Assembly (NCBI GenBank): GCA_963758155.1
Contig: CAVWUP010000006.1
Coordinates: forward strand, 22,399 to 86,398
Source of the DNA: an uncultured delta proteobacterium
Lineage (GTDB): Bacteria > Myxococcota_A > Polyangia > Fen-1088
Direction: 5' to 3'
Length of the DNA stretch: 64,000 bases
The position numbers were made by a program, and so were the translations under genes. The notes beneath the pieces were generated by a model that saw nothing but the letters and a program-made list of their open reading frames with translations, did no database searches and was not told the DNA's origin. Positions 4,325-54,484 of this stretch are shown here, piece by piece. Numbering within the stretch: position 1 is the stretch's first letter; each line of letters starts with the position of its first letter.

Positions 4325-4327
4325 TGT

Positions 4328-4798: not shown

Positions 4799-4870
4799 GG
4801 GCAATGGCCGCCTTCTGCCCAACCTGAATTCGGCAAGTCTAACCGAGTTGCGTCCGTAAGCCTAGCGGCC

Positions 4871-5110: not shown

Positions 5111-5201
5111 GCGGTCCCGGCGGTGATGCTGGCGTGCCCCATCCGGCCTGGTCCGCTAGCGACATGGCGTTGACCTGCGGCGCGCGCCGCCCAACGCCGG
5201 T

Positions 5202-5933: not shown

Positions 5934-6056
5934 GGATACCTCCCCTGGCTATACCTTGTGTCCAGCGACTCTGGCGGAGTTCCGTCCGTCAGCTTGGCGG
6001 CATGGGGCGGGCGCCATTGGGACTCTCCCTTGGGGGTGCGTGGCATGTTTCCCCTT

Positions 6057-7762: not shown

Positions 7763-7763
7763 G

Positions 7764-9209: not shown

Positions 9210-9241
9210 GGGACAGATCTCCGGTCAGGCCAGGCCCGACG

Positions 9242-11624: not shown

Positions 11625-11694
11625 GATGTGCCCGCCAGCCAGACGCCATGGTACCGCAGATCGCGGTCGCTGGCGCGATTGAAGGCAGACAGTC

Positions 11695-12567
11695 TCACCC
11701 CGTCGACTTCTTCCCCGGCGTTCCCGGGACTTTGCGGAAATCCACGAAGAGCTTGCGCTCGGTGGGTTGGCAGGTGGGGCAGAAGCAGGCGTCGTCGCGG
11801 CCCACGCGCACACGGCGGATTGTGGTTGCGCAGACCAGACAGGGCTCGCCCGCGCGGCCTCGCACCTTGAGGAAGTCGCGAACCTTCACTTCGATGGGCT
11901 GGTTGCGCGCCTCAATCTCGCGAATCGCGGCGTCCAGAATCTCGCGGATGGCGGCGAAGAGGCGGTCCACGTCGTCGGGCTGCAACTTGTGGCAGAAGGT
12001 CTTGGGGTGCAGGCGCGCGGCGAAGAGAATCTCGTCGGCGTAGGCGTTGCCGATGGAAGCGAGCGCGGTCTTGTCGAGCAGGAACTGGCGGACTTGATCA
12101 CGTCGGTTGGCCACCAGGCGCCGCATGTGCGACAGGGTGAACGCGTCCGAAAGCAGGTCGACGCCCAAAGTGGCGAAGCCAGGGATTTGATCCAACTGGT
12201 CGACGCGGGCCACGTAGATCTTGCCCATGCGGGTCTCGTCCGCGTAGCGCAACTCGGTGCCACCCGAGAAGGCCAGCGCCAGGATCAAATCGCGGCCCGC
12301 GCGCGTTCCGGTTTGCACCAACGAGTACCGGCCGGTCAACATCGCGTTCACCACCATGCACAGGCCGCCATCCAGATCGAAGCGTAGAAACTGCCCGCGT
12401 CGCTTCACTTCGACGATGCGCTTGCCCTTGAGCATCGCCGGGAACGGGTCCGGCACCATGATCCGTAGCACCACCGGATCGCCGACGCGAACATCGACGA
12501 TGGGCAGGCCGCACGCTTCCCGCCTCAGCACGGCTTCCACGTGAACCAGATCGGGCAACTCGGGCAC
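11695..12567 (-). CDS. Fpg/Nei-family DNA glycosylase / AP lyase
   Basis: A GTG at 12567 gives (M)[12 protein letters not shown], matching the catalytic N-terminal Pro-Glu of Fpg. H2TH region [20 protein letters not shown] and C-terminal zinc finger CLVCATTI...CFCPTCQ are present. Confidence 0.85.
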
Positions 12568-17407: not shown

Positions 17408-17890
17408 ATGCAAGCCAACAATCACAACATAGACCAGATTCTGGAAAGGCACGTGGGAGCCCGGCGGGATCGGCTGATCCCCATCCTGCAAGAGGTGCAA
17501 AAAGCCCAGGGCCACCTCTCGCGCGAGGCCATGATGAAGGTGGGGCGACACCTGAATCTGCCGGCGAGCAAGGTCTTCGGTGTCGCCACCTTCTACAATC
17601 AGTTCCGCTTCGCCCCCATCGGCAAATTCCACATCCAGGTGTGCCGGGGCACGGCTTGCCACGTGAAAGGCTCGCGCGCGGTGGTCGATGCCATTCGCCG
17701 CACCTTGAAAGTGGAACCAGGCCAATCCACGCGCGATGCCCTCTTCAGCCTGGAAGTCGTGGCCTGTTTGGGTGCATGCGGGCTGGCCCCGGTGGTCGCC
17801 ATCAATGGCGAATTCCACGGCGGTGTCACGTCGGATACCGTGCAGAAGCTCATCGCCAAGTGCCGGAGGGCCGCCCATGCCAACACTTGA
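17408..17890 (+). CDS. hydC: NuoE-like [2Fe-2S] subunit of a multimeric [FeFe]-hydrogenase
   Basis: ATG at 17408 in ORF 17066..17890. NuoE/HoxE-type motifs VCRGTACHVKG and ACLGACGLAPV. Confidence 0.9.
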   Translation: MQANNHNIDQILERHVGARRDRLIPILQEVQKAQGHLSREAMMKVGRHLNLPASKVFGVATFYNQFRFAPIGKFHIQVCRGTACHVKGSRAVVDAIRRTLKVEPGQSTRDALFSLEVVACLGACGLAPVVAINGEFHGGVTSDTVQKLIAKCRRAAHANT

Positions 17891-19883
17891 GCAAGAAGCC
17901 GGCCTGTTCCGCTGCTGCGATGCCTGTTGGCACAGCCCCAGCCGGCCCTGTCCCGACGTTGTGGCTTGCCTGACCGGCGACTTCCGTTGCCACGCCAGCG
18001 CGGCTTGCGACGGCAAACGCCGTGACCACATCCGAGCGCTGAAACGTCAGAACGCCGCTGTTCCGATCCTGTACCTGGGCACCGGCACCTGCGGATTCGG
18101 CGCAGGTGCGGGCAAGACCCTTGCCGCAATCAAAGCGTATCTGTCCAAGACCGGCCATCAGGCAAAGCTGGTGGAAGTTGGCTGCCTGGGCCTGTGCTCG
18201 CGCGAGCCCTTGCTCGATGTACAGCTTCCCGGCCAACCGCGGGTGACCTTTCTCGATATGACCGAAGAGAAGGTGCCCGAATTCTTGGACGAGGTGTTCG
18301 ACGGCGAGCTTCCGGGCGCCGCCCTGCTCGGTCAGCATCGCAACCCGGCCTTCACTCCCTTGGCCGATGTCCCGTTCGTCGACGAGCACCCGTTCTTCCG
18401 GCCCCAAACGCGGTGGGTGTTGGCCAACTGCGGACTGGTCGATCCGACGGACCTTGAAGAGTACATCGTCTGCGGCGGCTACCAGGCTCTGACCAAGACG
18501 CTGCGCCAGCACACGCCCGAACAGACCTGCGCCGTCATCGAACAAAGTGGTCTGCGCGGCCGAGGCGGCGGCGGGTTCACCAGTGGGAAGAAGTGGAACC
18601 TGGCCCGTCAGGTGGCCGCGGATCAGAAGTATCTGGTCTGCAACGCTGACGAGGGCGATCCAGGCGCGTTCATGGATCGTTCGGTCATCGAGAGCGATCC
18701 CTTCCGCTTGCTCGAAGGCATGGCCATCGCCGGCCACGCCATCGGTGCCAGCAAGGGCATCATCTATATCCGCGCGGAATACCCGCTGGCCATCGAGCGC
18801 CTGCTCACCACGATCCCCAAAGCGCAGGCTGCGGGATTTCTCGGGCACAACATCCTGGGCTCGGGCTTCGATTTCGACGTCAGCATCAAGCAGGGGGCAG
18901 GCGCTTTCGTGTGCGGCGAAGAAACCGCGCTCATGCACAGCATAGAAGGCCGCCGCGGCATGCCGCGTGTGCGGCCGCCCTATCCGTCGGTCAAGGGCCT
19001 GTGGGGCAAACCCACCTGCATCAACAACGTCGAGACCCTGGCCAACGTGCCGGGAATCATGAAAAACGGTGCCGATTGGTTTGCCTCGGTCGGCACGGCC
19101 ACCAGCAAGGGCACCAAGGTATTCGCGCTGTCGGGCAAGGTCGTGCGCACCGGCCTGGTGGAGGTTGCCATGGGCACCAGCGTGCGCGACGTTGTGTTCG
19201 GTGCCGGCGGTGGCATCGCCAACAACAAGAAGTACAAGGCCGTGCAGATCGGCGGCCCGTCGGGCGGCTGCATCCCCGAACAGCACCTCGACATCCTGGT
19301 CGACTACGAGTCGCTGAAAAAGGTGGGCGCCATGATGGGCTCGGGCGGCCTGGTGGTCATGGACGAAGACAACTGCATGGTCGATGTGGCGCGCTTCTTC
19401 ATGGACTTCATCCAGCGCGAAAGCTGCGGCAAGTGCATTCCCTGCCGCGAAGGCACGCGCCGCATGCTGGAGATTCTCAATGCCATCACGCGCGGCTATC
19501 GCAACGAGAGCCCGCACCAAAGCATGGAGCGCTTCAAGGGCGTGATGGCGCTGGAGGAACTGGCCGAGGTCATCGGCGACACCAGCCTGTGTGGATTGGG
19601 ACAGAGCGCGCCCAATCCGGTGCTTTCCACCTTGCGCTGGTTTCGCGAAGAGTACGAAGCCCACATTTTCGAGCGCAAGTGCGCGGCGCATGTCTGCGTG
19701 GAGCTGCTCAACTACACGGTCGACAATGACAAATGCACGGGCTGCACCGTGTGCACCAAACAATGTCCCACCGCCGCGATCGTGGGCGAAAAGAAGACGG
19801 CCCACTACATTCTGCAGGACAAGTGCATTGCCTGCGGTACTTGCGCCGAGGTCTGCAAATTCGACGCCGTTCGCGCGGACTGA
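17877..19883 (+). CDS. hydB: NuoF-like flavoprotein (NADH/FMN, Fe-S) subunit of a multimeric [FeFe]-hydrogenase
   Basis: ATG at 17877 overlaps the hydC stop. Thioredoxin-like 2Fe-2S region (GTGTCGFGAG...GCLGLCSREP). FMN/NADH site GLRGRGGGGFTSGKKW. SLBB and 4Fe-4S motif ESCGKCIPCREG. C-terminal 2x[4Fe-4S] ferredoxin (CTGCTVCTKQCP, CIACGTCAEVC). Confidence 0.9.
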   Translation: MPTLEQEAGLFRCCDACWHSPSRPCPDVVACLTGDFRCHASAACDGKRRDHIRALKRQNAAVPILYLGTGTCGFGAGAGKTLAAIKAYLSKTGHQAKLVEVGCLGLCSREPLLDVQLPGQPRVTFLDMTEEKVPEFLDEVFDGELPGAALLGQHRNPAFTPLADVPFVDEHPFFRPQTRWVLANCGLVDPTDLEEYIVCGGYQALTKTLRQHTPEQTCAVIEQSGLRGRGGGGFTSGKKWNLARQVAADQKYLVCNADEGDPGAFMDRSVIESDPFRLLEGMAIAGHAIGASKGIIYIRAEYPLAIERLLTTIPKAQAAGFLGHNILGSGFDFDVSIKQGAGAFVCGEETALMHSIEGRRGMPRVRPPYPSVKGLWGKPTCINNVETLANVPGIMKNGADWFASVGTATSKGTKVFALSGKVVRTGLVEVAMGTSVRDVVFGAGGGIANNKKYKAVQIGGPSGGCIPEQHLDILVDYESLKKVGAMMGSGGLVVMDEDNCMVDVARFFMDFIQRESCGKCIPCREGTRRMLEILNAITRGYRNESPHQSMERFKGVMALEELAEVIGDTSLCGLGQSAPNPVLSTLRWFREEYEAHIFERKCAAHVCVELLNYTVDNDKCTGCTVCTKQCPTAAIVGEKKTAHYILQDKCIACGTCAEVCKFDAVRAD

Positions 19884-19904
19884 TCCCTGGAAAAGGAACT
19901 GCTG

Positions 19905-21629
19905 ATGCCGTTCATCGAAGTCAACAACCGCCAAGTCGAGATGAAGCCCGGCGAGATGCTTTTGTCCACCATCAGACGGGCCGGCGTTCGCGTCCCCACT
20001 CTCTGTGCCTTGCCCTCCCTGGATCCCACAGGCGCCTGCCGCATCTGCGTGGTCGAGGTGGAGAATCATCGCGGCCTGGTGCCAAGCTGCTGCGTGCCCG
20101 TGACCGAGGGCATGAAGGTGAAGACCCATTCGCCTCGCGCGGTCAGGGCGCGCAAGACAGTGGTGGAGTTGTTGCTGGCCAACCACCCCGAAGACTGCAT
20201 GTATTGCCCACGCGATGGCTCGTGCCAGCTACAGAAGCTGGCCATCCAGCATGGCGTGCGCGAGCGCCGCTACCCGGGCGCCAGCCAAAGTCAGCGGACC
20301 TGTGACGTGTCGAGTGCGTCGCTGGTGCGCGATCCGGCCAAGTGCATTCTGTGCGGCAAGTGCGTGCGGGTGTGCGAGGAAATCCAGGGCGTTTCAGCCA
20401 TCGACTTTGGCGGCCGTGGCAGCCAGACCGTGGTGGGACCCGCGTTCGGCGACGGGCTCAACGTCTCCAGCTGCGTGAACTGCGGCCAATGTGTCGTGGT
20501 TTGCCCGACGGCCGCTCTGACTGAACAGAGCCACATCAAGAACGTTCTGGCGGCGCTCAACGATCCGCAGCGCACCGTCGTCATCCAGCATGCGCCCGCG
20601 GTTTCCGTCACCCTGGCAGAAGCCTTCAATCTACCGGCCGGCACTGATGTGGCCGGGAGCATGACCGCGGCCCTTCGCCGCCTGGGTTTTCGCAAGGTCT
20701 TCGACACCAGTTTCTCGGCCGACGTGACCGTGATGGAAGAGGCCAGCGAACTGGTGGCGCGGATCAAGAGCGGGGGCCCGCTGCCCATGTTCACCAGTTG
20801 TTCGCCGGCCTGGATCAAATTCGTCGAACAGTTCTACGGCGACATGATTCCCCATCTGTCCACCTGCAAGAGCCCGCAGCAAATGTTGGGCGCGCTCATC
20901 AAGAGCCACTTCGCCGCCCAAGAGGGATTGGACCCACGACGGATCTTCACCGTGGCAGCCATGCCCTGCACAGCGAAGAAGTTCGAAGCGCGGCGACCGG
21001 AAATGGTCGAGGGCGGGTTGCCCGACACCGATGCGGTGCTGACCACGCGCGAGCTGGTCGAGATCATTCGCATGCACGGGCTCGACTTGCGCGAGCTGGA
21101 CCCCGAGGCGGCTGACGCCCCCTTTGGTCTTCGGTCTAGCGCCGGGAAACTATTCGGTGCCACAGGTGGCGTGATGGAGGCAGCCCTGCGCACAGCCCAC
21201 CACCTGATCACGGGGCGCGAGTTGGACGCACGGACCTTGCCCGCGCTGCGGGGTACTGACGGCATCAAGGAGATGAAGATTCGCGTGGGCGACATTGAGC
21301 TCGGGGTGGCCGTAATCAGCGGACTGCAGAAGGCGCGGCGCTTGCTCGACGAAATTCGCGCGGGACGCAAGGATCTGCACTTCGTCGAGGTGATGAGCTG
21401 CCCAGGAGGCTGCATCGCCGGCGGCGGGCAGATGCTGGGCGCTGACCTCGATGCCGTGCGCGCGCGGATGGCGGCGCTGTACGCACTTGACGAAAACAGC
21501 ACCCTGCGCACGGCCCACGGCAATTCCGCGGTGCGCGCCCTCTACGATGAATTCCTGGGCCAGCCGCTCGGTGAACGAAGTCACAACCTTCTGCACACCC
21601 ACTACCAGCCCCGCGATTTGCCACTTTAG
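19905..21629 (+). CDS. hydA: [FeFe]-hydrogenase catalytic subunit (CpI-like M3 architecture) with a variant L1 motif
   Basis: N-terminal 2Fe-2S (CRICVVEV). His-ligated cluster HPEDCMYCPRDGSC. 2x4Fe-4S (CILCGKCVRVC, CVNCGQCVVVCP). H-domain motifs FTSCSPAW, MPCTAKKFE, MSCPGGCIAGGGQ. Confidence 0.9.
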   Translation: MPFIEVNNRQVEMKPGEMLLSTIRRAGVRVPTLCALPSLDPTGACRICVVEVENHRGLVPSCCVPVTEGMKVKTHSPRAVRARKTVVELLLANHPEDCMYCPRDGSCQLQKLAIQHGVRERRYPGASQSQRTCDVSSASLVRDPAKCILCGKCVRVCEEIQGVSAIDFGGRGSQTVVGPAFGDGLNVSSCVNCGQCVVVCPTAALTEQSHIKNVLAALNDPQRTVVIQHAPAVSVTLAEAFNLPAGTDVAGSMTAALRRLGFRKVFDTSFSADVTVMEEASELVARIKSGGPLPMFTSCSPAWIKFVEQFYGDMIPHLSTCKSPQQMLGALIKSHFAAQEGLDPRRIFTVAAMPCTAKKFEARRPEMVEGGLPDTDAVLTTRELVEIIRMHGLDLRELDPEAADAPFGLRSSAGKLFGATGGVMEAALRTAHHLITGRELDARTLPALRGTDGIKEMKIRVGDIELGVAVISGLQKARRLLDEIRAGRKDLHFVEVMSCPGGCIAGGGQMLGADLDAVRARMAALYALDENSTLRTAHGNSAVRALYDEFLGQPLGERSHNLLHTHYQPRDLPL

Positions 21630-23949: not shown

Positions 23950-25530
23950 CTACTTGGGGCTCACCTTCACCACCGTGTTTCTCGTGGCCCAATAGACACT
24001 GGTGTCGTCCACGGCGATTCTCCCGGGGCTGTCTTGCGCCAGGGCGAGTTTCGTAGGGGTGCCACCGCCGAGTGGTGCCTTCATCACAGCACCGCCGCTA
24101 TAGAGATCGGCACCGTTGGTCCAGTACACGGAAGAGCCGTCGACTGCGATGCTCGCGACGGACGAAAATGGAGCCCGTCCCGATACGAGCGTCACCGGAC
24201 TGCCGCCGTCGAGTGGCATCTTCATCACCGAGCCGCCCGCGATCCAGTACACGCTGGTAGCGTCCACCACGAGGGCATGCGGGGCGTCTTGGGCCGAGGC
24301 GACCATGATGGGAGTGCCGCCGCCGACTGGCACTTTCATCACCGTGCCGTCTGTGGTCTCTTCGGATCCGTAGCTGAACGTTCCAAACTTGGTCCAGTAG
24401 ACGTAGGCTGCGTCCACGGCGATGCTGCTGGGGAAGCCCTGGACCGAGGCCACTGGGACAGGAGTGCCGCCGTCCAGTGACACCCTCATCAGAGCGCTGC
24501 CGGTCATCCAATAGACGCCACCAGCGCCCAAGGCGATCCAGCTCTGGCCTCCGTTGGCAAGCGTTGTGGGAGTGCCACCGGCCAAGGGTACTTTCATGAT
24601 GTCGTAGGTCGAATCGGTCATAGGTGACACCCAGCGTACCCAATAGACGCCGAAAGCGTCTACAGCGATATTTTCGATCATGTTGTCGTCGGAGACGAGC
24701 GGCGTAGGAGTGCCACCGCCCAGCGGTACCTTGTTCAAGCTGTCATGATTCACGTTCCCGTCAGCCGCCCAGCCGGCCACCGTCCAGTACAGGCTGGAGT
24801 TGTCCACTGCGATGTCCCTGACAGACTCCACCGAAGCAAGAGTGGCCAGCGTGACGAGACAGCGGCCCAGCATACACTGAGTCGTGGAAGGAGCGGGGAC
24901 GGACGGGCAGATGGTGCCGCATCCGCCGCAGTTGTTGCTGTCCATCTGGATATCGGTGCACATATCGTTGCAGGTCACATCACATGTGCAGGTGGGCTCG
25001 GTACCGTCCCATGTGCCATCGGCCTGGCAAGTGCGGGTTGCATCGCCCTGCAGGCTGTATCCGGACGAGCAGAAATAGCTGGCCGTCGCCCCATATTTCG
25101 TGATGGGGGCACTGACCACCCCGTTTGCTATTCCGGCAGGCGTTTCGCAAACAGCATCAACCGCGACGCAGGTTGGAACATCGCCGCTCCAGGTTCCATC
25201 GGTCTGACAGGTGCGGGTCGCAGATCCCGAAAGAGCGAAGCCTGGCGTGCATGAATAGGTGGCCGTGGACCCATGTGTGTATGCTGGCACGCTCACGGAT
25301 CCGTTGCCGGGATTGGCAGGCGAGCCACAAACAGCGGCGGTCAGGCTGGATGCTCCGCCTATTCCTCCCGCAATCAGAATCGGCCCGCTGCCGCCAGCGC
25401 CACCGCCCGCCGAGTCTTGCTGGCTCTCCACACCTCCACCTCCATCGGGCCGCGACTTTGCGCTCCTGGTCGCGCAACCAACGACAGCGACTGCGACGAA
25501 GAAATGGAGGCCGCGTTTGACCATGGTCAT
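23950..25530 (-). CDS. Lipoprotein with two Sushi/CCP modules, a Cys-rich spacer and a 7-bladed YWTD-type beta-propeller
   Basis: ATG at 25530 (RBS AGGGA) with lipobox VAVVGC. Two 54-aa CCP units: C..P..G...Y.C..G[FY].L.G....C...G.W....P.C. Seven repeats of [IV]AVD...[VL]YW...VMKVP..GG.P. Confidence 0.85.
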   Translation of the reverse strand: MTMVKRGLHFFVAVAVVGCATRSAKSRPDGGGGVESQQDSAGGGAGGSGPILIAGGIGGASSLTAAVCGSPANPGNGSVSVPAYTHGSTATYSCTPGFALSGSATRTCQTDGTWSGDVPTCVAVDAVCETPAGIANGVVSAPITKYGATASYFCSSGYSLQGDATRTCQADGTWDGTEPTCTCDVTCNDMCTDIQMDSNNCGGCGTICPSVPAPSTTQCMLGRCLVTLATLASVESVRDIAVDNSSLYWTVAGWAADGNVNHDSLNKVPLGGGTPTPLVSDDNMIENIAVDAFGVYWVRWVSPMTDSTYDIMKVPLAGGTPTTLANGGQSWIALGAGGVYWMTGSALMRVSLDGGTPVPVASVQGFPSSIAVDAAYVYWTKFGTFSYGSEETTDGTVMKVPVGGGTPIMVASAQDAPHALVVDATSVYWIAGGSVMKMPLDGGSPVTLVSGRAPFSSVASIAVDGSSVYWTNGADLYSGGAVMKAPLGGGTPTKLALAQDSPGRIAVDDTSVYWATRNTVVKVSPK

Positions 25531-25579
25531 TAGAATCCCTGCTCGACAACGACTATAATAGCACCCTGGGGCCAAGAGC

Positions 25580-26270
25580 ATGGATGAAGTCAGCCGACGG
25601 ACAGGGCGACATCGATCAGCAACTCGTCATCGGTATGCCCTGTTTGTGCTCACAGTCTTGGGCGGCTGCTCAAGAAGCCCGCTCCGTACTGCGCACGATG
25701 GGGCTGCCGCCGGAGGTGACAGCGGTGAAAACTGGGACACCCCTGGCGCCACCAGTGGCAGCACTCAAGATGGGGGCGGCGTTGCAACCGGCGGCGCGGC
25801 TGGCATGGGGACCGGCGGAACGCTCGGCTCATCAGCCGGAGACACCGGTTCTGGCGGTGCTGTGGATGCCAGCAGCACCCGCGGTGCAACGGACGCCACT
25901 GGAGATGCGATTTCCACGGATGGCAGTCCGGGTGCCGTTGAGGATGCGGATTACATCCGAAACCGAGGTCGATGCCTCACCCGATGGCTGGTGTGACGTG
26001 AATCCACTGTGGAATGCGATTACTGAAGGCGCAGGAGTAGGTTTGGGATACTGTTTCGCCTTTGTGCCGGACTACGATCCTGGTTGCGGCTTCGTCAGAA
26101 ACGGGGGCTATGTCGTCTTCGACGGCGACGGCAGGGTTGTCGACAATACGGGCTTGTTTGGGTCACAGAAACAAGCATGGCTGGACGGCTTGTCCACTAT
26201 GCGCTGGCCATGCTATGCGGGCCAGACCATCCAATACATGTGTGTTGAATATCCGGATGAGCCGTGCTGA
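25580..26270 (+). pseudogene. Lipoprotein gene apparently split between two frames
   Basis: The frame of ORF 25580..25996 supplies the lipoprotein signal (ALFVLTVLGGCS) and a Gly-rich linker. The frame of ORF 25584..26270 supplies a 6-Cys globular C-terminus (DGWCDVNPLW...YMCVEYPDEPC). The switch lies somewhere near 25900..25965. Confidence 0.45.
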
Positions 26271-46789: not shown

Positions 46790-46797
46790 TTGGCTCC

Positions 46798-46926
46798 TTT
46801 TTTCACCACAGAGAGCACAGAGGACACCGAGGTCGGAAAGGAAGAAGGGGTTCGGACCGGACAGAACGCAACCCTTCCCTTTCCGATCCGGCTCTGTGAC
46901 CTCTGTGATCTCCGTGGTGAAAAAAA
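46798..46926. repeat. Palindromic MITE/REP-like element, copy A
   Basis: T6-CACCACAGAGAGCACAGAGGACAC...GTGACCTCTGTGATCTCCGTGGTG-A6. Arms of about 35 nt are imperfectly complementary. It starts 8 nt after the rsmB stop. Confidence 0.75.
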
Positions 46927-47117
46927 CTAGCTTCCCTCCGGTCGGCGCCGGCGCGGGAAGAGCAGGGCGTAGGATCCGGGGCCGCGCTGGACGACCACCA
47001 CGAGCTTGGGACGATAGGCGTGGCGGTATTGCTGGTACCAAGCCTCGTGTCGAATCAGCAGATCCTTCTCGATGCTGGTCCTGGCCACAGCGTGCGCTGT
47101 GTACTATTGCTTGAGCC

Positions 47118-48335
47118 GTGCCCAATTCCGTTTCGCCCTCCGGTTCGTCACGGCGCGCCCAGTCCATCCCCGCTGGACCTGCGCCGCGTGCCCTGTGCGA
47201 GCGTTGCCGTCGACCCGCCACCGTCTGCTACTGCGCACATATCACGCCTCTCGAAACCCGCACGCGCGTGATCGTTTTGCAACACCCGCGCGAGCGTGAC
47301 GTGGGCATCGGCACCGCACGCATTGCGCGGCTGTGTTTGCCAGGCGCCGTGTTGCGTGTGGGCATCGATTTTTCCGACGACCCGGTGGTGCAGGCCGCGC
47401 TGGCCAGCGGCGAGAGCCATGTCATTTATCCGGGGCCGGCGGCGCGTGACGTGGAATCCATGCCGCCTGGTCAGCCCATGATTTTGATTCTGGTCGACGG
47501 CACTTGGGGCCAGGCGCACAGGCTGCTCAAGGCCAACCCGGCGCTCACGCGCCTGCCGCAGTTGCGTTTCACTCCGCCCCAGGAGAGTGCCTACAACCCC
47601 ATCCGACGCGAACCCGCCTTTCATTGCATGGCCACCATCGAGGCGCTGGCCCATGTGCTCGGCTATCTGGAAGGTGATCGCGAGCGCTTCCAGAGCTTGC
47701 TGCGGCCTTTCCACTCGATGGTGGAGACGCAGCTACGCTACGCCCAGTCCAGCTCGGGCAGCCGCCATCGCCTTCACTCGCGACGCAACAGTCGCCCGGC
47801 GCGCAGCCCGATTCCGACGGTTTTGCGCGAGCGCCGGGCCGACATCCTGTGCGTGCACGGCGAGGCCAACACCTGGCCGCGCCACGCGCCCACGCGCCAC
47901 CCGGCCGAGATCGTGCACTGGCTGGCGCGTCGGCCGTCGAGCGGCGAAGCCTTCGAGGCGGTGATCGCCCCGCGCCACAGCCTGGCGCCGACCACGCCCT
48001 TCCACATCCGACTGAGTAGCGGCGCGCTTCTGGCAGGGGAAAGCTGGGAATCGTTCGCGGCGCGCTGGCAGGCATTCTTGCGGCCCAGCGACGTCATCGT
48101 GTCGTGGGGACATTTTCCTGTGGATACCCTGGCTGCCGGCGGCGTGGTTCTGCCTCGGCCGCGCTACGACGTCCGGGCACTGGCTGGCGCAGTTCTCAAG
48201 AAACGCACCGGCACCGTCGAGCATTGCCTGCCCCACATGCAGATTTCCGCGCCCGAGCCCTGCGGCGCCGGCCGCGGCGGCGCGCGCCTGGCCGGACTGT
48301 GTGCGGTCGTCGAGCAACTGTTGGCGGGAGGCTAG
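47118..48335 (+). CDS. DTW-domain tRNA-uridine aminocarboxypropyltransferase-like protein with ~190-aa C-terminal extension
   Basis: GTG start. CERCRRPATVCYC zinc-like motif, VLQHPRE, and ILILVDGTWGQA (the DTW motif). The C-terminal half has no assignment. Confidence 0.8.
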   Translation: MPNSVSPSGSSRRAQSIPAGPAPRALCERCRRPATVCYCAHITPLETRTRVIVLQHPRERDVGIGTARIARLCLPGAVLRVGIDFSDDPVVQAALASGESHVIYPGPAARDVESMPPGQPMILILVDGTWGQAHRLLKANPALTRLPQLRFTPPQESAYNPIRREPAFHCMATIEALAHVLGYLEGDRERFQSLLRPFHSMVETQLRYAQSSSGSRHRLHSRRNSRPARSPIPTVLRERRADILCVHGEANTWPRHAPTRHPAEIVHWLARRPSSGEAFEAVIAPRHSLAPTTPFHIRLSSGALLAGESWESFAARWQAFLRPSDVIVSWGHFPVDTLAAGGVVLPRPRYDVRALAGAVLKKRTGTVEHCLPHMQISAPEPCGAGRGGARLAGLCAVVEQLLAGG

Positions 48336-48336
48336 C

Positions 48337-48450
48337 TTTTTTCACCACAGAGGGCACAGCGAACACAGAGATCGGAGGGGAAGAAGGGCTTTGGACCGGA
48401 CAGAATCCAACTTTTCGGCCCGGCTCTGTCTGTCCTCTGTGGTGAAGAAG
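48337..48450. repeat. Palindromic MITE/REP-like element, copy B
   Basis: T6-CACCACAGAGGGCACAGCGAACACAGAG...CTCTGTGGTGAAGAAG. Colinear with copy A. It starts 1 nt after the DTW gene stop (GCTAGC junction). Confidence 0.75.
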
Positions 48451-48478
48451 GATTCTGGTGGTGTAGTTTTCCCTGTCC

Positions 48479-51427
48479 ATGTCTTTCCACTTGATCTCGC
48501 GCTTCCTGCTGCGCGCGCCACTGCTTCCTGTGCGCGGACTGCGCAATCCGCAAGCGGCGCTGCGGCGGCATCCCTTGGGCGCCATGGCTGTGGAGCTGGC
48601 CAGTTCGGATCTGGCAACGGCGTTGCAACGAGAGCCGGGCTCTGCTGCTGCGGCCGCGCTTTCACGCTACGCCCGCCGTGCGGCCTTTCGTCCGACGCCG
48701 GCAGGCCTTCTGGCAGGCGTGGCCGTGGGCCGGCTAGGCGCGCGCACCCGTCTTGCAACCAATGAGGTCGAGCCTGTCGTGGCTCCGACCTGGGAGCGCG
48801 TGGCGGCGCTGGGGCGCGCGCTGCTCGACGAGCCGGAGATTCGTCCTGGCGTGAGTCTGCGAATTGCGCCGTCGCTGATGGCCGTGGGAGCGCGGGCTGT
48901 TTGGCTGGCTCTTGGCCACGACGGACTTGAGGTGCGCGCCAGCGACGTCGATGTCGTGCTGGAAACCGTGATTGCGAGCGCGCAAGAGTGGACGCCCTGG
49001 GCTGCGGTGAACGGGGCGATTGAGGCTGCGGTCCGTGGCGAGGCAGGCGACGTGGACGAGTTGTTGCTCGTGCTCGTCGACCGCGGCGTGCTCTGCCACG
49101 ATTTTGCGCCGCCGCTCGTGGGTCAGCCGCCGGCGCAGTGGTTGGTCCAGCGCCTGGCGCGGCTGCCGGTTGAAGTCGAGGCCCTGGTCGATCCGATTCG
49201 CCAGCGACTGCGGGGAATTTCGTCGACTGACTTGGCCGGAACGCGCGCCGCCTTGGCTGGGCTGCCTGGCGCCAACGAGTCGGCGACCGACGTGATGAGC
49301 ACGCTCCTTCATCGCCCGCGTGGCGAGCCGATGCTTTCGCGACGGGCGGTTGCGCGGGCAGCGGCTTGCGCGCCTCTCCTGTTGCGCCTGCAGGAGGCAT
49401 TGGCTGGGCCGGTGGCAGAGCGCGTTTGCGATTCCGGTCTGGCCGAGCAGCTGGATTCCATGGTCGAGGTCCTCGGCGCCGGCGCGTTGGACCTCACGGA
49501 CTTGGCCACCGGCGGCTATGGCAGCGGCTTGGCCGAAACCGACGACGAGCCCGCGCGCGGCGACGGCGGACGTGAGGTGCTGGCGTTTCTCGCGGATGCG
49601 GTCGCACAGGCCGCTGCTGCGGGCAAGGCCGAGATCACACTCGATCCCGCGGCGCTCGATGCCATCCTGCCTGCGCTCGGCACGCCACCGACCTTCGAGC
49701 TGTTCCTGTCGCCGGCCCGCGAGCCGCCGCGCGCGCCGCCGGGCACGGGCTGGCTGCTCGGACTGCACGCGCCCGCTGGGGCGAGCTGGGGACGTTTTTC
49801 CGGCGCGCTGGGCGCTCCCATGCGCGAGGCCCTGGCCGAACTGGCCGCAGCGGAAAAGCAAGCGCGACCCGGCGAGAGAGCGCTGGACGTGGTGTACGCG
49901 CCGTCGCCCGCGCAGGCGGATCTATGCGCTCATCCGCCCGTGCGCGAGGCTGCGTTGGCTCTGGTGGGCTGGCCCGAGGGCGCGGCGACAACCCCGGCGG
50001 AACTTGCGCTGGTCGTGGATCCAGCGGCTGTGGAACCCCTGGCTTTGCGAGATTCGACCTCGCAGCCTATCACTCCGAGTCCGCTCCATCGCGTGCGCTC
50101 CGCGACGGCGCCGTCCGGGATCTATCGCCTGTTGGCCGGCTGGTCGTTGGCCCGGCAGCACGCGCCCTGGGCGTTTTCATGGGGCGCGCTCGCTGGGCTG
50201 AAATTCCTGCCGCGTGTGGTTCTCGACGGCTTCGTGGTGGCGCCCGCCAGTTGGCGCGTTCCTTCCCCCGCGCAAATCGCGCGTCCGACCGCGCTCGCGC
50301 GTTGGCGTCGACAGAACCGCGTTCCAGCTGCTGTGCAGGCAGGCGAGGGCGACGAGTTGCTTTATCTGGATCTGCGTGCGGCTGGCGCGTGTACAGAGCT
50401 GGCGCGTTTTGCCGGCGGTCGAGTCTTCGAGATCTGGCCGCCGCTCGGCGAGTTGCCGGACGCCGGTGGCCGTCGCGTCGAAGCGGTGGTGGCTGTGGCC
50501 CATGTCCCGGACCCGGACGAACGCGAAGGCCTGACGGCAGCCATCGCGGCGACCCGGGCGGCCGGACGCGTGCCGTCGCCAGCTCAGGCGCCGCCTGCCG
50601 AGAATTGGATCAGCCTGCGCGTCTACGGCGCGGTCGAGCGGCAGGACGCCGTTCTTGTCGAGGCTGTGGCCCCGGCGGTCAGGGCCGCGCTCGCCGCAGG
50701 AGAGATCGACACGTGGTTCTTCTTGCCCTACGTCGACCAGCCCGGCCAACGCCACCACCTGCGCGTGCGCGGCCACGCGGGTTCAGAGCGCAAGGCCGAA
50801 GCCTTTGGCCGCCGCGTGCGGCGTGCCCTGCCGCCCCTGCGTGAGCGAGGCGACGTGGTGAGCGTGGAATCCGGCGAATACTTCCGCGAAACTGCGCGCT
50901 ACGGCGGGGAAGCGCTCATGCCTGCGGTGGAGCGTCTGTTTCAGGGCAGCAGCGAGCTGGTCATGGCTGTCTTGGAAGCCGAGAACCAGGGCGCGGGGCA
51001 GGCTGATCGCGTGGCCCTCGCGGTCCGCGCTGCAGACGCCATGGCCAGCGGTATGGGCTTGGACGTCGACGCACGAATGGAATTGGCGAGGCAGCGTCGG
51101 GAGGCCTGTGCGCACGCGGGACTTCTCGACCAGGAACAGGCGCGGCAAGAATATCGACGAGGTTCGCGGCAGCTTTTCGCTTGGCTCGCCGGCCGGGAAG
51201 ATGATGCCTTCACACCCGCGCTTTCGGCTCTGAAAAACACCGCCGCGTCGGTGGCGGCGTCACTGGATGCCGATTTGCACATGGCCTTGCAGCGGAAACT
51301 GCCGGTCCTGCTTCACGTGCAGGCCGTGCGCCTTGCTGGCCCGAACGCCAACGCCGAGGCTCTCTCCCACTACCTCTGGCATCGCACGCTTGAGAGCATC
51401 ACAGCTCGGAGCAGACGGCCGGGGTGA
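48479..51427 (+). CDS. Full-length LanB-type (class I lanthipeptide) dehydratase-like protein
   Basis: 982 aa. The N-terminus MSFHLISRFLLRAPLLPV is typical of Lant_dehydr_N proteins. The C-terminal ~270 aa match the SpaB_C / thiopeptide-type elimination domain (NWISLRVYG...DTWFFLPYVDQPGQRHHLRVRG). Confidence 0.8.
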   Translation: MSFHLISRFLLRAPLLPVRGLRNPQAALRRHPLGAMAVELASSDLATALQREPGSAAAAALSRYARRAAFRPTPAGLLAGVAVGRLGARTRLATNEVEPVVAPTWERVAALGRALLDEPEIRPGVSLRIAPSLMAVGARAVWLALGHDGLEVRASDVDVVLETVIASAQEWTPWAAVNGAIEAAVRGEAGDVDELLLVLVDRGVLCHDFAPPLVGQPPAQWLVQRLARLPVEVEALVDPIRQRLRGISSTDLAGTRAALAGLPGANESATDVMSTLLHRPRGEPMLSRRAVARAAACAPLLLRLQEALAGPVAERVCDSGLAEQLDSMVEVLGAGALDLTDLATGGYGSGLAETDDEPARGDGGREVLAFLADAVAQAAAAGKAEITLDPAALDAILPALGTPPTFELFLSPAREPPRAPPGTGWLLGLHAPAGASWGRFSGALGAPMREALAELAAAEKQARPGERALDVVYAPSPAQADLCAHPPVREAALALVGWPEGAATTPAELALVVDPAAVEPLALRDSTSQPITPSPLHRVRSATAPSGIYRLLAGWSLARQHAPWAFSWGALAGLKFLPRVVLDGFVVAPASWRVPSPAQIARPTALARWRRQNRVPAAVQAGEGDELLYLDLRAAGACTELARFAGGRVFEIWPPLGELPDAGGRRVEAVVAVAHVPDPDEREGLTAAIAATRAAGRVPSPAQAPPAENWISLRVYGAVERQDAVLVEAVAPAVRAALAAGEIDTWFFLPYVDQPGQRHHLRVRGHAGSERKAEAFGRRVRRALPPLRERGDVVSVESGEYFRETARYGGEALMPAVERLFQGSSELVMAVLEAENQGAGQADRVALAVRAADAMASGMGLDVDARMELARQRREACAHAGLLDQEQARQEYRRGSRQLFAWLAGREDDAFTPALSALKNTAASVAASLDADLHMALQRKLPVLLHVQAVRLAGPNANAEALSHYLWHRTLESITARSRRPG

Positions 51428-51428
51428 A

Positions 51429-51797
51429 TCAGTTTTGTAGCTTGTTGTGCGCGGCGAGTTTCGCCCGCACTTGCGCCATGTCCAGATCCTTGACCCGGCC
51501 CGCGAGCGCTTCCAGGGCCTCCTCGGGCATGGCTCCTGTCTGAGCGAAGACTAGGATGCCGTCCCGAAATATCATGAGCGTCGGGATCGCCCGAATGCCA
51601 AAGGTCATCGCCAGGTCCGGGTACTCTTCTGCGTTGACCTTGGCGAACACGACTCCAGGATTCTTGTCAGCCACTCTTTCAAAGATGGGTCCGAAGACGC
51701 GGCACGGCCCGCACCACGGAGCCCACCAATCAACGAACACGATTCCGTTCTTGAGTAGGGCCGGGAAGTCTTGCTCGTTCACGTTCTGCATCGGCAT
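51429..51797 (-). CDS. trxA: Thioredoxin
   Basis: 122 aa with the WCGPC active site and AIPTLMIF cis-Pro loop. Confidence 0.9.
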   Translation of the reverse strand: MPMQNVNEQDFPALLKNGIVFVDWWAPWCGPCRVFGPIFERVADKNPGVVFAKVNAEEYPDLAMTFGIRAIPTLMIFRDGILVFAQTGAMPEEALEALAGRVKDLDMAQVRAKLAAHNKLQN

Positions 51798-51863: not shown

Positions 51864-52142
51864 TTACTCGTCCTCGCCGTGATCTTCGTCCTTCTCCGCC
51901 GACTCTCGGCGTAGAACTTCCTGCAAGAGCGTGCGCTCGATGCACGACTGGACCGGGACGGTTTCTTCGATGGGAATCACCTGCTGAGGAGCGGCGTTGG
52001 GCGCGTCGGCTGCTGCCTCGTCGTCTTTTCCGCTCACAGCCGGGATCTCTCTGGTCTTATCGAGTTGGTCGAGGGGAATAGGCACGCCGGCAATCCTACG
52101 CGACACCGGACGGGTTTGGGGCCGAGCCATTGCTCTTGTCAT
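51864..52142 (-). CDS. Hypothetical acidic protein upstream of thioredoxin
   Basis: ATG at 52142 preceded by GGAGAA. 92 aa ending in EKDEDHGEDE. No family recognised. Confidence 0.45.
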   Translation of the reverse strand: MTRAMARPQTRPVSRRIAGVPIPLDQLDKTREIPAVSGKDDEAAADAPNAAPQQVIPIEETVPVQSCIERTLLQEVLRRESAEKDEDHGEDE

Positions 52143-52340
52143 CGGTTCTCCTGCGGGCCGCTTGAACGCAGACAACAACCATCGGGTTCGGTCCTCGGAC
52201 TTGCGATTGGGCCAAGCGATGCACACCAACAGCATAGATCACATGGCGCCCCGCCGGTAAGGGGCTTCACCCTTGCGCAGCCCGGCGGGGGCGCGCGTTG
52301 TCCGGGCGCGCTGGTCCAGCATGGACGCCAGCGTGATGGT

Positions 52341-53546
52341 ATGAAGGGGCCAATGAAGCCACCGCAGGAAGAAAATTTCGCCGCACTTCTGCAAGAGTTC
52401 GAGGGCAAGAACGCGCGTCGGGCTGAGCCCGAGGTGCGAGCGGGTGATTCCGTGCGTGGCCGCGTCATCTCGCTGGGCCGCGAGACCGCTTTCGTGGAAC
52501 TGGCGGGCGGCAAGACCGAGGGCATGATCGATCTGCAGCAGCTGCGCGACCAGGACGGCAACCTGACGGTCAAAGTTGGCGACGAGATCGAGGCGCGCGT
52601 GGTGGAAACCATGGGCAAGTCGGGCTGTGTGGTTTTGCGCCGTACCGCGGTCGCGCGCGGGCCCGAGGCCAAGGCCGAACTGCAGCAGGCGGCCCAACTC
52701 GGCCTGGCCGTGGAAGGCACGGTCACCGGCGTGAACAAAGGCGGGGTCGAGGTGCTGGTGGCGGGTGTGCGCGGGTTTTGTCCGATTTCGCAGCTGGAAA
52801 TGCGCCACGTGGAAGACGCCAACGAGTACGTGGGGCGCAAGCTGGAGTTCCGAATCACCCGCTACGATGTCGACCGACGCGGGGACAACTTGGTGGTTTC
52901 GCGGCGTGCATTGCTGGAAGCCGAGGCGCGGTCGCGGGCCGACAAGATTCGCAGCAAGCTGGTGCCGGGCGCCGTCTTGCCCGGCGTGGTGGTTGCGCTC
53001 AAGGATTTCGGCGCGTTCATCGACCTGGGCGGGGTGCAGGGCATGCTGCCGGCATCCGAACTCGGATTCTCGCGTGGGATGCGGCCGGCTGACCGGCTGT
53101 CGCTGGGGCAACAGCTCGAGGTTCAGATCCTTCGCGTGGAGAAGACCGACGATCCCAAACGACCCGAACGGATTTCGTTGTCGCTCAAGTCGCTGGAACG
53201 GGATCCGTGGGAGGACGTGGCCACGCAGTTTCCGTCGGGAACCAGAATTTCGGGCCGGGTCACGCGCATCGAGGCGTTCGGCGCATTTGTCGAGCTGGCG
53301 CCGGGGATCGAGGGCTTGGTCCATATCGGCGAGCTGTCAGCGGGCAAGCCTGTGCGCAACGCACGCGAACTGACCAAGGTGGGTGTCACGCTGGAGGTCA
53401 CCGTGCTGGCGCTGGATCGGGAACGGCGTCGCATCTCGCTGGGCGTGGGCGAGCGCACCGATGTGGTGTCGCAGGAAGATCTGGACGCGGCTCGCGCGCC
53501 GGCCCGTCTGGGAACCCTGGGCGATCTCTTCAAGAAGAAGCTGTAG
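52341..53546 (+). CDS. S1 RNA-binding domain protein (four S1 repeats)
   Basis: ATG at 52341 in ORF 52065..53546. Four units of the G..V.G.V......G.FV.L....G..H.S pattern (for example GRVTRIEAFGAFVELAPGIEGLVHIGELS). Confidence 0.8.
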   Translation: MKGPMKPPQEENFAALLQEFEGKNARRAEPEVRAGDSVRGRVISLGRETAFVELAGGKTEGMIDLQQLRDQDGNLTVKVGDEIEARVVETMGKSGCVVLRRTAVARGPEAKAELQQAAQLGLAVEGTVTGVNKGGVEVLVAGVRGFCPISQLEMRHVEDANEYVGRKLEFRITRYDVDRRGDNLVVSRRALLEAEARSRADKIRSKLVPGAVLPGVVVALKDFGAFIDLGGVQGMLPASELGFSRGMRPADRLSLGQQLEVQILRVEKTDDPKRPERISLSLKSLERDPWEDVATQFPSGTRISGRVTRIEAFGAFVELAPGIEGLVHIGELSAGKPVRNARELTKVGVTLEVTVLALDRERRRISLGVGERTDVVSQEDLDAARAPARLGTLGDLFKKKL

Positions 53547-53551
53547 AGAAA

Positions 53552-54484
53552 TCATCGCGCGAGACGCACGCGATATTTGGCCACCATGTGGTGCGGGCCG
53601 TACGAGAGCTTGGCCCGCCGCAGTCCCGCATCGCCTGCGTCCTGTTCGCGGTTCACCCAGGCATATTGGGAAAGTGTGTTCTCGCACAACATCTGGTTCA
53701 TGGCCTGGTACAGGCCGCGGATTTCGGAATTGGCCTTTTCCACGATGACCAGCGCCGTGTCCCGGTTGAGCTGCGAGCCGATGGCAAAGGCTTCGATGCG
53801 ACCATCCACCCTGATGGTCGCGCCGGTCACCGGCAGATCTTGGTAGTGGCGCAAGAGATCGTGTACGGCCCGATCCTCGGCAGTCAGGCCTGGCAGGTCG
53901 CTGCGGCCGCGCGTGGCGAACCACCGGCGCTGAAAGTCGACGACTTCTGGCAGCGAGCGCGGATCGATCTCGGCGTAGGTGAAGTCGTAGCTTCGCATGA
54001 AGTTGCGAATGTGATTGCGCTTGCCGTCGTACCTGTGTCCGGGCAGATGGATGAGGTCCTGGGTCCGGTACACGTAGTCCGCGTTGTCTGGATCCTCTTC
54101 GGTCAAGAGTTCCCCGGTCGCCTCCGCATCCGCAGCCTGCCGCCCGGTCAGGCCATACACGAATCCTTCCTCGCCCCGCTCGCGCAGCCACCGCAGCATG
54201 TTGAGCATGGCCGCCACCGGATCGCGCGCCTGCAAGGGTGGGTAGAAACAACGCTTGCCGTGCCGAGTGATGAAGAGGCAAAGGGCACCTTCGAGATCGC
54301 TGATCTGGGTCTGCCGCACCCCGTGCCAGGCGAAGATCTCCGCGAAGTTCAGCTCCGATACCTCGGGCTGCTCGGACGCAAGAGCGCTATCGACGATCTC
54401 TCGATGCGGGACGTCGAGGGGCACAAATTCAGGAAACTCCGGGAGTTGGCCCATGGTCAGCTGGGAACGAGCGAGAGCGAACAT
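53552..54484 (-). CDS. DUF2156 (MprF/LysX C-terminal-like, acyltransferase fold) protein
   Basis: 310-aa ORF. YDGKRNHIRNF, EKANSEIRGLYQ and LRRAKLSYGP are typical of DUF2156. Confidence 0.7.
   Translation of the reverse strand: MFALARSQLTMGQLPEFPEFVPLDVPHREIVDSALASEQPEVSELNFAEIFAWHGVRQTQISDLEGALCLFITRHGKRCFYPPLQARDPVAAMLNMLRWLRERGEEGFVYGLTGRQAADAEATGELLTEEDPDNADYVYRTQDLIHLPGHRYDGKRNHIRNFMRSYDFTYAEIDPRSLPEVVDFQRRWFATRGRSDLPGLTAEDRAVHDLLRHYQDLPVTGATIRVDGRIEAFAIGSQLNRDTALVIVEKANSEIRGLYQAMNQMLCENTLSQYAWVNREQDAGDAGLRRAKLSYGPHHMVAKYRVRLAR

Follow-up and report, generated by a model that had tools for sequence, protein, structure and literature searches.

A lone full-length LanB-type dehydratase in an uncultured myxobacterium points to a LanC-less LanB subfamily of the Polyangia

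LanB enzymes are, to our knowledge, known almost only from gene clusters for antibiotic-type peptides. The closest described full-length enzymes, MibB (5EHK), MadB (9G04/9G05) and NisB (4WD9/6M7Y), carry a glutamylation domain and a glutamate-elimination domain in one polypeptide; the TbtB/TbtC and GodF/GodG systems are split, and the PEARLs (small LanBs) are without the elimination domain. In Haliangium ochraceum, a cultured member of the Polyangia, a 2010 survey found LanB-only and LanC-only genes scattered (Marsh et al., PMC3091789), among them Hoch_0066, a LanB without neighbouring lan genes. The gene analysed here, from a 64-kb stretch of DNA of an uncultured member of the Polyangia (the window), resembles Hoch_0066 in its context; the survey listed that gene only, and the conserved LanC-less subfamily, its synteny and the selection acting on it come from the present analysis. 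It shares with MibB, MadB and NisB the two-domain architecture and the predicted fold over the whole length but, unlike them, is only 14–23% identical to these enzymes and belongs to a Polyangia family that sits amid housekeeping genes, appears to be vertically inherited and has no LanC, LanA, LanT or LanP nearby. The features of the locus are collected in Table 1.

Table 1. Features of the LanB locus and its flanks (positions within the window).
Feature	Position	Strand	Basis
MITE/REP-like element, copy A, after rsmB stop	46797..46925	.	Repeat search
53-codon remnant of 274-aa secreted-protein gene (c11), beside copy A	46927..47088	-	Clusters with c11
Two-domain DTW protein, 405 aa, start codon uncertain (GTG at 47118)	47118..48335	+	PF03942, fold
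MITE/REP-like palindromic element, copy B, inside DTW–LanB spacer	48336..48450	.	Repeat and hairpin
LanB-type dehydratase (class I lanthipeptide-type), full length, 982 aa	48479..51427	+	ORF translation, Pfam, TIGR03891
Glutamylation domain Lant_dehydr_N, residues 31–635	48569..50383	+	Pfam limits; RPTP (R71, T73), GRF (R439)
Putative leader-binding winged-helix (RRE-like) insert, residues ~126–215	48854..49123	+	Position and secondary structure
Glutamate-elimination domain Lant_dehydr_C, residues 710–970	50606..51388	+	PF14028; R764, E804, R807, H946, R951
Thioredoxin, WCGPC, convergent with LanB	51429..51797	-	PF00085, E 9e-23
Conserved small acidic protein, ~92 aa from MTRAM start, in trx–rpsA interval	51864..52142	-	No Pfam match

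The translation of the LanB gene begins MSFHLISRFLLRAPLLPV. It matched PF04738 with an E-value of 1.1e-58 and 199 bits, far above the cut-off of 28 bits, over profile positions 2–643 of 649, and its C-terminal domain matched both PF14028 (E 6.9e-41) and TIGR03891 (E 6.8e-40), a ‘thiopeptide-type’ profile that relates this domain to the thiopeptide systems. An AF2 model of the protein (pLDDT 89.3, pTM 0.86) was matched by Foldseek to full-length MibB, MadB and NisB (5EHK, 9G04/9G05 and 4WD9) with TM-scores of 0.70–0.77 and E-values of 1e-41 to 1e-33. The initial annotation had read both halves of a LanB into the 982-aa protein from its sequence alone, and these profile matches and the NisB/MibB/MadB-like fold confirm that reading. 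The N-terminal part also resembles the glutamylation fold of TbtB (6EC7) and GodF (9JHQ); unlike the split systems, however, the window protein is one fused polypeptide, and the 64-kb window has no YcaO, no [4+2] cyclase or pyridine synthase and no NRPS/PKS context. Unlike the PEARLs, it keeps an elimination domain with the mapped catalytic residues.

In an alignment of 22 orthologues of 46–83% identity, the RPTP and GRF motifs are invariant, as are R764, E804, R807, H946 and R951. Profile-to-PDB alignment placed R71, T73 and R439 on R87, T89 and R464 of NisB, this N-terminal alignment being weak and the mapped glutamylation residues being these three, without D121 and D299; R764, E804, R807 and H946 of the elimination domain fall on NisB R786, E823, R826 and H961. 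The position of NisB R775 differs, being occupied by P750 in the window protein, a replacement seen only in the DTW-linked subclade described below, and by arginine in the other subclades as well as in NisB, MibB and MadB.

Residues ~126–215 align to the leader-binding region of MibB and MadB and, like the winged-helix domain at that position in those enzymes, form an insert, modelled here as four beta-strands (within residues 126–156), three helices (159–201) and another strand (205–207). The mean column conservation of this insert, 0.60, is about equal to that of the whole protein, and from the model we infer that it is a putative RRE-like leader-binding domain. The LanB gene is under purifying selection, with a dN/dS of around 0.2 (0.19–0.28 against orthologues), which is close to the values for the neighbouring DTW gene (0.11–0.22) and thioredoxin gene (0.10–0.14). 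The window thus encodes a genuine LanB that is full length and apparently enzymatically competent. The sequencing runs listed with this stretch are DNA metagenome runs only, with no RNA runs among them.

In order to find partner genes, essentially every long ORF of the window was compared with Pfam, and no LanC, YcaO, radical SAM, C39 or ABC exporter was found, nor was any LanT/LanP-type exporter or protease present in the 64 kb. Small-ORF calling over all intergenic ORFs of 25–120 aa in the window gave no credible Ser/Thr/Cys-rich precursor, its output being Arg/Ser-rich out-of-frame artefacts of the kind common in high-GC DNA; the initial annotation had reported the surroundings of the LanB gene to be empty of LanC, YcaO, other tailoring genes, transporter and precursor, and both scans agree with it over the full 64 kb. 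There is in any case no space for a LanA gene adjoining LanB: in relatives 4–11 nt lie on its upstream side, and in the window 1 nt lies on its downstream side. The small acidic protein beyond the thioredoxin gene, whose copies in the window and in loci L001 and L004 have ...TVPVQSCIERTLLQEVLRRESAE in common, was rejected as a precursor, because it has no Ser/Thr/Cys-rich core and no leader-like features and its Cys is replaced by Ser in L001. The remaining content of the window consists only of housekeeping, restriction-modification, hydrogenase and lipid-synthase genes, and no tRNA genes were found in it.

The absence of a cyclase extends to the relatives. A tblastn search found no LanC in the window or in 69 other loci, 61 genome and five metagenome loci among them carrying a LanB of the family; the search used a single LanC, from the nearest outgroup cluster, supplemented by Pfam on recurrent neighbours, and might have overlooked a highly divergent cyclase encoded by a singleton ORF. 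Precomputed Pfam tables of L001–L005 and L071 likewise contained no LanC. None of about 60 sampled family loci, covering four synteny types, has a LanC inside ~10 kb of LanB, and ABC genes lie close to a family LanB only in L011, as a Lol-like set in divergent orientation.

The subfamily defined by this protein comprises 61 genome loci, all in uncultured Polyangia/Myxococcales MAGs, with members down to ~40% identical. Full-length members scored ~650–1433 bits against the family profile, compared with at most 289 bits for the next full-length LanBs, and the tree groups the whole family as a single clade with a long stem (SH-like support 0.95, 1.32 substitutions per site). In each of the two nearest outgroup LanBs examined, a LanC gene overlaps the LanB start, and one of these LanB–LanC pairs sits within a YcaO/ThiF/nitroreductase cluster. 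Within the family, at least four synteny types map onto subclades of the tree: besides the context found in the window, LanB follows glgP and a secreted protein, a PMT_2 glycosyltransferase or an SPFH protein. This agreement between synteny and tree points to vertical inheritance; the family is a discrete branch, LanC-less at the sampled loci, that appears to have been passed on as a lone gene at housekeeping sites. A literature search found no description of such a LanC-less Polyangia LanB family.

The immediate neighbours are as the initial annotation described them, with a DTW gene upstream on the LanB strand, behind MITE copy B, and a convergent thioredoxin gene downstream; the LanB stop codon, TGA, ends at 51427 and the thioredoxin stop codon begins at 51429, leaving 1 base between them. 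The thioredoxin scored 96.5 bits against TIGR01068 (cut-off 96.8). The DTW protein matched PF03942 (E 8e-43) over residues 24–206, and its top Foldseek match was Escherichia coli TapT (YfiP/TuaA; 9KYT, E 1e-7), which it resembles in fold, in its DTW domain, in a Cys-rich motif near the N terminus (CxxC...CxC) and in the DGTW motif, which lies at residues 127–130 and is invariant across homologues; its N-terminal half is modelled as a putative TapT-type tRNA acp3U transferase domain. Unlike TapT, it carries a C-terminal extension of ~190–200 aa with a DEDD/DnaQ/RNase T-like fold (AF2 pLDDT 84; Foldseek matches to DnaQ, RNase T and ERI1). This DEDD exonuclease-like domain is found Polyangia-wide, and differs from the usual DEDD exonucleases in that its first acidic motif is degenerate, reading HGE instead of DxE.

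On balance we favour, at somewhat better than even confidence, the explanation that the window encodes an intact, selected Glu-tRNA(Glu)-dependent Ser/Thr dehydratase of a LanC-less, vertically inherited Polyangia LanB subfamily, with a lineage-specific DTW neighbourhood and a substrate encoded elsewhere. In such a mechanism, the winged-helix insert would bind a recognition sequence on a peptide or protein whose gene lies at another place in the genome, the N-terminal domain would move glutamate from Glu-tRNA to Ser/Thr side-chains and the C-terminal domain would eliminate it to leave dehydroalanine or dehydrobutyrine. Because no dedicated cyclase is encoded locally, the product would be a linear dehydropeptide or dehydroprotein, or would be cyclised by an unlinked LanC. 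The enzymatic activity, the nature of the substrate and the action in trans are all inferred, the last from the absence of partners nearby. It is also possible, although we think it unlikely, that the enzyme serves a canonical but dispersed class I pathway, with LanC, LanA and exporter genes elsewhere, making a conserved lanthionine peptide that might, for example, be surfactant- or morphogen-like. The LanC-coupled outgroup enzymes suggest that the ancestor of the family probably had a cyclase as its partner, H. ochraceum has LanB-only and LanC-only genes that are not linked to each other (PMC3091789), and the retained RRE-like insert implies a leader-bearing peptide substrate. However, the lack of LanC within ~10 kb at the sampled family loci, across four synteny types, speaks against such a pathway, and permanent unlinking at this evolutionary depth would be unusual for RiPP pathways. 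We give very little credence to the view that a lost lanthipeptide cluster has left the gene behind as a decaying or non-functional relic: the missing partner genes, and an upstream MITE insertion that ended tight coupling to the preceding gene, would fit it, but the 982-codon frame is open, every mapped catalytic residue is invariant, dN/dS is low and orthologues have been kept across the whole depth of the family.

Two further explanations give the LanB genes partners from among their neighbours. In one, which we consider quite improbable, the DTW protein and LanB form a functional pair, a TapT-like enzyme modifying tRNA(Glu), another RNA or a peptide and thereby providing or adjusting the co-substrate of LanB. 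The two enzymes have tRNA in common, the RNase T/DnaQ-like domain of the DTW protein could bind tRNA 3′ ends, and in relatives of 55–83% identity that are without the MITE the two genes, on the same strand, overlap by 4 nt (L001) or stand 11 nt apart (L004), which indicates that they are co-expressed in that clade, as a functional connection of some kind would allow. The DTW–LanB–Trx order, however, is restricted to one monophyletic LanB subclade (LanB at least 55% identical), the only one in which thioredoxin adjoins LanB, and even there it is broken in L011 (LanB 78% identity), where LanB–Trx–S1 is kept and DTW is absent upstream. In the other subclades, the two-domain DTW gene is absent from the vicinity of LanB at about 45 loci, the lone other DTW match being a short, 30%-identical one ~2 kb from the LanB of L057; conversely, the identical two-domain architecture occurs Polyangia-wide (720 proteins) and, in three other lineages of the Polyangia, follows pta-ackA-ndk with no LanB nearby. 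Our literature search found no paper linking DTW and LanB and, as far as we know, the acp3U47 targets of E. coli TapT do not include tRNA(Glu). The confinement to one subclade, the break in L011 and the placement after pta-ackA-ndk leave a functional link unsupported, and the neighbourhood looks like a lineage-specific gene order rather than a functional module; of the two options left by the initial annotation, which found the adjacency intriguing and allowed for coincidence, the functional one has gained no support. The other explanation, to which we assign a low probability, places the family outside RiPP biosynthesis altogether, as Glu-tRNA-using protein modifiers that would convert a defined Ser of a cellular or envelope protein to dehydroalanine, perhaps as an electrophilic handle for envelope attachment or cross-linking. 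The candidate target comes from a sister clade, in which a secreted protein of ~205 aa, encoded on the LanB strand, ends just upstream of LanB in 26 loci (25 found through LanB and one, L071, through the secreted protein), L041 having ~1.2 kb between the two genes. Six of the eight invariant columns of this protein lie in its C-terminal tail, ...DP(10–14 residues)RPxxAS(x)[YF]x-stop, whose Ser would be the modified residue; for the window clade the target would be unlinked. An M23 peptidase gene follows LanB in the sister clade, its start overlapping the LanB stop, and the vertical, housekeeping-like inheritance and purifying selection of the family would also suit such a role. Against it, LanB is a cytoplasmic enzyme but the secreted protein carries a Sec-type signal peptide, the association of that protein with LanB is inseparable from inherited gene order, and the protein is missing from L002 and L003, where LanB is kept, as well as from the 64-kb window, in which neither the protein nor its C-terminal motif was found. 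In addition, we know of no LanB that acts on a folded protein. A ‘second LanB-like 240-aa ORF’ after the sister-clade LanB proved to be a clustering artefact, the ORF being the M23 peptidase.

The maintenance of a lone LanB under purifying selection across abundant uncultured soil and peat myxobacteria suggests a conserved physiological role for tRNA-dependent Ser/Thr dehydration outside lanthipeptide clusters. It also calls for caution in genome mining, as antiSMASH-type tools will call a lanthipeptide or thiopeptide cluster at such LanB loci, where there is none.

The secreted protein c11, encoded divergently from DTW, has no Pfam match and was rejected as a LanB partner; it is intact (274 aa) in L001, L004–L007, L012 and L013, and in the window it is reduced to a remnant while LanB is intact. 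The MITE beside this remnant, copy A, and that in the DTW–LanB spacer, copy B, are related, copy B being a direct repeat of positions 46797–46877 (84% identity over 81 nt), and the spacer forms a long predicted hairpin (-61.4 kcal/mol, z -2.7). DTW and LanB were probably co-transcribed before the MITE insertion split the pair.

The LanB gene lies in DNA of ~62-72% GC (per 1-kb interval, in the scanned part from 40 to 58 kb), and its product, with the N-terminus MSFHLISRFLLRAPLLPV, carries both LanB halves, as the initial annotation had read from the sequence; besides the two Pfam domains listed in the table, it also matched TIGR03891. Profile alignments to NisB, MibB and MadB placed R71/T73 and R439 at the positions of NisB R87/T89 and R464, and R764, E804/R807 and H946 at those of NisB R786, E823/R826 and H961; mutation of these NisB residues, as Ortega et al. 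are said to have found in 2015, stops glutamylation or elimination. The sole peculiarity was P750 (in WFFLPY), which is Arg in NisB, MibB, MadB and the other subclades. The AlphaFold model of the protein was confident (pLDDT 89.3, pTM 0.86) and superposed on full-length MibB, MadB and NisB with TM scores of 0.70-0.77; in this model an insert of beta-strand and helix (residues ~126-215), conserved to the same degree as the remaining sequence, occupies the site of the leader-binding winged helix. Alignment of 22 orthologues (46-83% identity) gave ~130 invariant columns, and pairwise dN/dS against five orthologues was 0.19-0.28, compared with 0.11-0.22 for the neighbouring DTW gene (a TapT-type tRNA acp3U transferase homologue) and 0.10-0.14 for the thioredoxin gene. 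No RNA run was among the sequencing runs listed as containing this DNA. The window enzyme is intact and under selection, has a putative RRE-like insert, and shows every testable feature that defines the LanB family.

Features of the LanB locus and of a sister-clade locus (L027), with the gene orders found around LanB in related loci
Feature	Position	Strand	Details
LanB ORF	48479-51427	+	982 aa
Lant_dehydr_N, PF04738, in LanB	residues 31-635		E 1e-58
Lant_dehydr_C, PF14028, in LanB	residues 710-970		E 7e-41
DTW protein	47118-48335	+	405 aa; DTW domain, first 206 residues, E 8e-43
Thioredoxin (WCGPC)	51429-51797	-	one base between its stop and the LanB stop
MITE-like palindromic element	48336-48450		occupies the 143-nt DTW-LanB spacer
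Second MITE-like copy (A)	46797-46925		after the rsmB stop
Secreted ~205-aa tail protein	L027:9337-9960 and 25 other loci	LanB strand	
Gene order, type 1 (the window's)			rsmB / secreted protein(-) / DTW / LanB / trx(-) / small acidic protein(-) / rpsA
Gene order, type 2			GH57(-) / glgC(-) / glgP / secreted 205-aa protein / LanB / M23 peptidase / GH6 / histidine phosphatase; ~20-26 loci
Gene order, type 3			Cys/Met-metabolism PLP-dependent enzyme (PF01053)(-) / PMT_2 glycosyltransferase / LanB / GDSL lipase
Gene order, type 4			TetR(-) / SPFH / LanB / S9 peptidase(-)

A word-indexed search found 298 relatives of the window LanB; among the best 120 of these, all had the N-terminal LanB Pfam domain and nearly all had both domains, the full-length proteins being ~920-1045 aa. 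The source was Polyangia or Deltaproteobacteria wherever an organism was given, and a pattern scan with one genome per species yielded 61 loci, all from uncultured Myxococcales/Polyangia MAGs. When 1.84 billion representatives were searched with a profile, full-length family members scored ~650-1433 bits, and no full-length LanB outside the family exceeded 289 bits, a sharp gap. With outgroup LanBs as the root, a maximum-likelihood tree showed the family to be monophyletic (SH-like support 0.95), on a stem of 1.32 substitutions per site. In every locus the plausible genes up to 6 kb away from LanB were clustered and the recurrent clusters annotated, which gave the four gene orders of the table; no neighbouring gene was common to all four. 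Type 1, seen in ~16 loci whose LanBs are all at least 55% identical to that of the window, formed one clade (10/10, support 0.93) that nests next to type 3; type 4 likewise made up one clade, and the loci of type 2 lay inside a clade of 26 tips. Because the types fall into LanB clades, gene order follows the LanB tree, the mark of vertical descent in which rearrangements are occasional.

Searches of the 64-kb window revealed no LanC, YcaO, LanP, radical SAM enzyme or C39/ABC exporter and no tRNA genes, and no credible precursor emerged when small ORFs between the genes were scanned, so that the lack of LanC, YcaO, exporter and precursor, originally remarked close to LanB, extends across the whole window. 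The system differs from a class I lanthipeptide cluster in having no LanC, LanA or LanT nearby, and is neither a thiopeptide-type split system nor a PEARL. A tblastn search with an outgroup LanC found no match in the window or 69 other loci, and LanC was missing from the Pfam tables precomputed for six loci of the family, the absence across loci being defined by this one query and by Pfam annotation of recurrent neighbours. In both nearest outgroups inspected a LanC gene overlaps the LanB start, in one of them within a ThiF/YcaO/nitroreductase cluster; these serve as a positive control, because LanC was detected by the same method where present. The nearest outgroup LanB (L070:2730-11060, on an ENA metagenome-assembly contig) belongs to a ThiF-YcaO-nitroreductase-LanC-LanB cluster that has the appearance of an azole/lanthipeptide hybrid among RiPP clusters, with KAP NTPase and NACHT-like genes on its flanks.

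The coordinates agree with the initial annotation in placing the DTW gene upstream on the same strand, with a MITE copy intervening, and a convergent thioredoxin gene downstream, with stop codons 1 nt apart (51427/51429). The adjacency of DTW to LanB, which had been thought either intriguing or coincidental, is real, but a functional meaning for it was not supported. Coupling of DTW and LanB is tight in the clade of the window: they overlap by 4 nt in L001, a homologous locus with 55% identity, and are 11 nt apart in L004; it is almost certain that both were transcribed together until the MITE inserted. However, in L011 (78% identity) the LanB-trx-rpsA-...-ligA order is kept while a divergent Lol-like ABC set, not DTW, lies upstream; no two-domain DTW gene occurs near LanB in ~45 loci of the other types, the sole other DTW match being short, 30% identical and ~2 kb from the LanB of L057; and on three long contigs from other lineages the two-domain DTW gene follows pta-ackA-ndk, with LanB absent from the 8-kb flanks. 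The adjacency is therefore best read as inherited gene order rather than a functional module. The thioredoxin gene is convergent with LanB, and so is not co-transcribed with it; like DTW, it adjoins LanB only in the DTW/Trx clade.

The DTW translation shows CxxC...CxC and DGTW motifs, and the model of its N-terminal domain is TapT-like (best match E. coli TapT, 9KYT). Its C-terminal extension (residues ~205-405; 47730-48335) is modelled with a DEDD/DnaQ/RNase T/ERI1-like fold (Foldseek E ~1e-5), in which the first acidic motif is degenerate, HGE rather than DxE. This predicted fold agrees with an accessory module for tRNA binding, attached to a tRNA enzyme of housekeeping function, and, since the two-domain architecture (~390-405 aa including the extension) is kept in 720 homologues in Polyangia, the extension probably either binds tRNA 3' ends or is a pseudo-exonuclease. 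A stand-alone LPG_synthase_C (DUF2156) protein, the domain that in MprF acts as the aminoacyl-tRNA-dependent transferase, is encoded at 53552-54484 (-), 2 kb from LanB, and is kept in the synteny block; the occurrence of three tRNA-using enzymes (this protein, LanB and DTW) within 7 kb is probably chance.

With no local partners and a vertically inherited gene, LanB would recognize a leader-like stretch of some peptide or protein whose gene lies elsewhere, glutamylate its Ser/Thr residues from Glu-tRNA(Glu), and eliminate glutamate to leave Dha or Dhb. An unlinked LanC might afterwards form thioethers; such a dispersed pathway is rather unlikely, yet a serious rival, because Marsh et al., in their survey of 2010, recorded LanB-only genes and, separately from these, LanC-only genes in Haliangium ochraceum (PMC3091789).

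We consider it distinctly improbable that LanB instead serves as a protein-modifying enzyme, for which the tail protein of the sister clade (type 2 loci) is a possible candidate substrate. This secreted ~205-aa protein ends just 5' of LanB in 26 loci (with a gap of ~1.2 kb in L041), and an M23 peptidase gene overlaps the LanB stop codon at the 3' side; it has a signal peptide, a helical middle and a tail, ...DP(10-14 residues)RPxxAS(x)[YF]x-stop, that holds six of its eight invariant columns. An invariant Ser in a conserved tail directly before the gene of a Ser dehydratase is suggestive, but the protein is Sec-targeted and absent from the window, L002 and L003 keep LanB without it, and the association is inseparable from inherited synteny.

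Orphan LanBs have been catalogued earlier, for example the LanB-only genes of H. ochraceum (PMC3091789). A discrete LanB subfamily that lacks LanC, is passed on vertically and has become fixed at housekeeping loci throughout a lineage of uncultured Polyangia appears to be undescribed in the literature searched.

The genes within ~10 kb either side of LanB are of housekeeping type and encode a GH3 hydrolase, RsmB, DTW, Trx, the small acidic protein, ribosomal protein S1, the stand-alone LPG_synthase_C domain, an unassigned 402-aa protein, DUF1877 and NAD-dependent DNA ligase. In relatives, a gene for a 274-aa secreted protein (-; no Pfam match) stands between rsmB and DTW; its remnant in the window (interval 46797-47117) is 53 codons (46927-47088, -) directly beside MITE copy A, which suggests a deletion linked to this element. 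As listed, the S1 (rpsA-like) ORF at 52065-53546 (+) has 493 aa when begun at TTG 52065; it exceeds its orthologues (397-401 aa) by ~95 codons and overlaps the small acidic gene on the opposite strand, and the true start is therefore probably near 52340.

Elsewhere in the 64 kb lie a type I restriction-modification system, Fpg, an [FeFe]-hydrogenase pair, a PfaA-like synthase operon, glutamate dehydrogenase, RibF, CarD, pilins and others. The HsdS, HsdM and HsdR genes (6057-11813, -) adjoin several ORFs without Pfam match at 64-6239, and a 241-nt direct repeat occurs at 3873-4113 and 4870-5110 (92% identity). The Sushi/CCP (complement control protein) domain, unusual among bacteria, occurs as two repeats in a 543-aa protein (23950-25581, -; PF00084, E 1.6e-28). 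A NuoF-like flavoprotein gene adjoins that of the [FeFe]-hydrogenase large subunit (17736-21629, +), the two making up a hydrogenase pair of the electron-bifurcating type in a Polyangia MAG.
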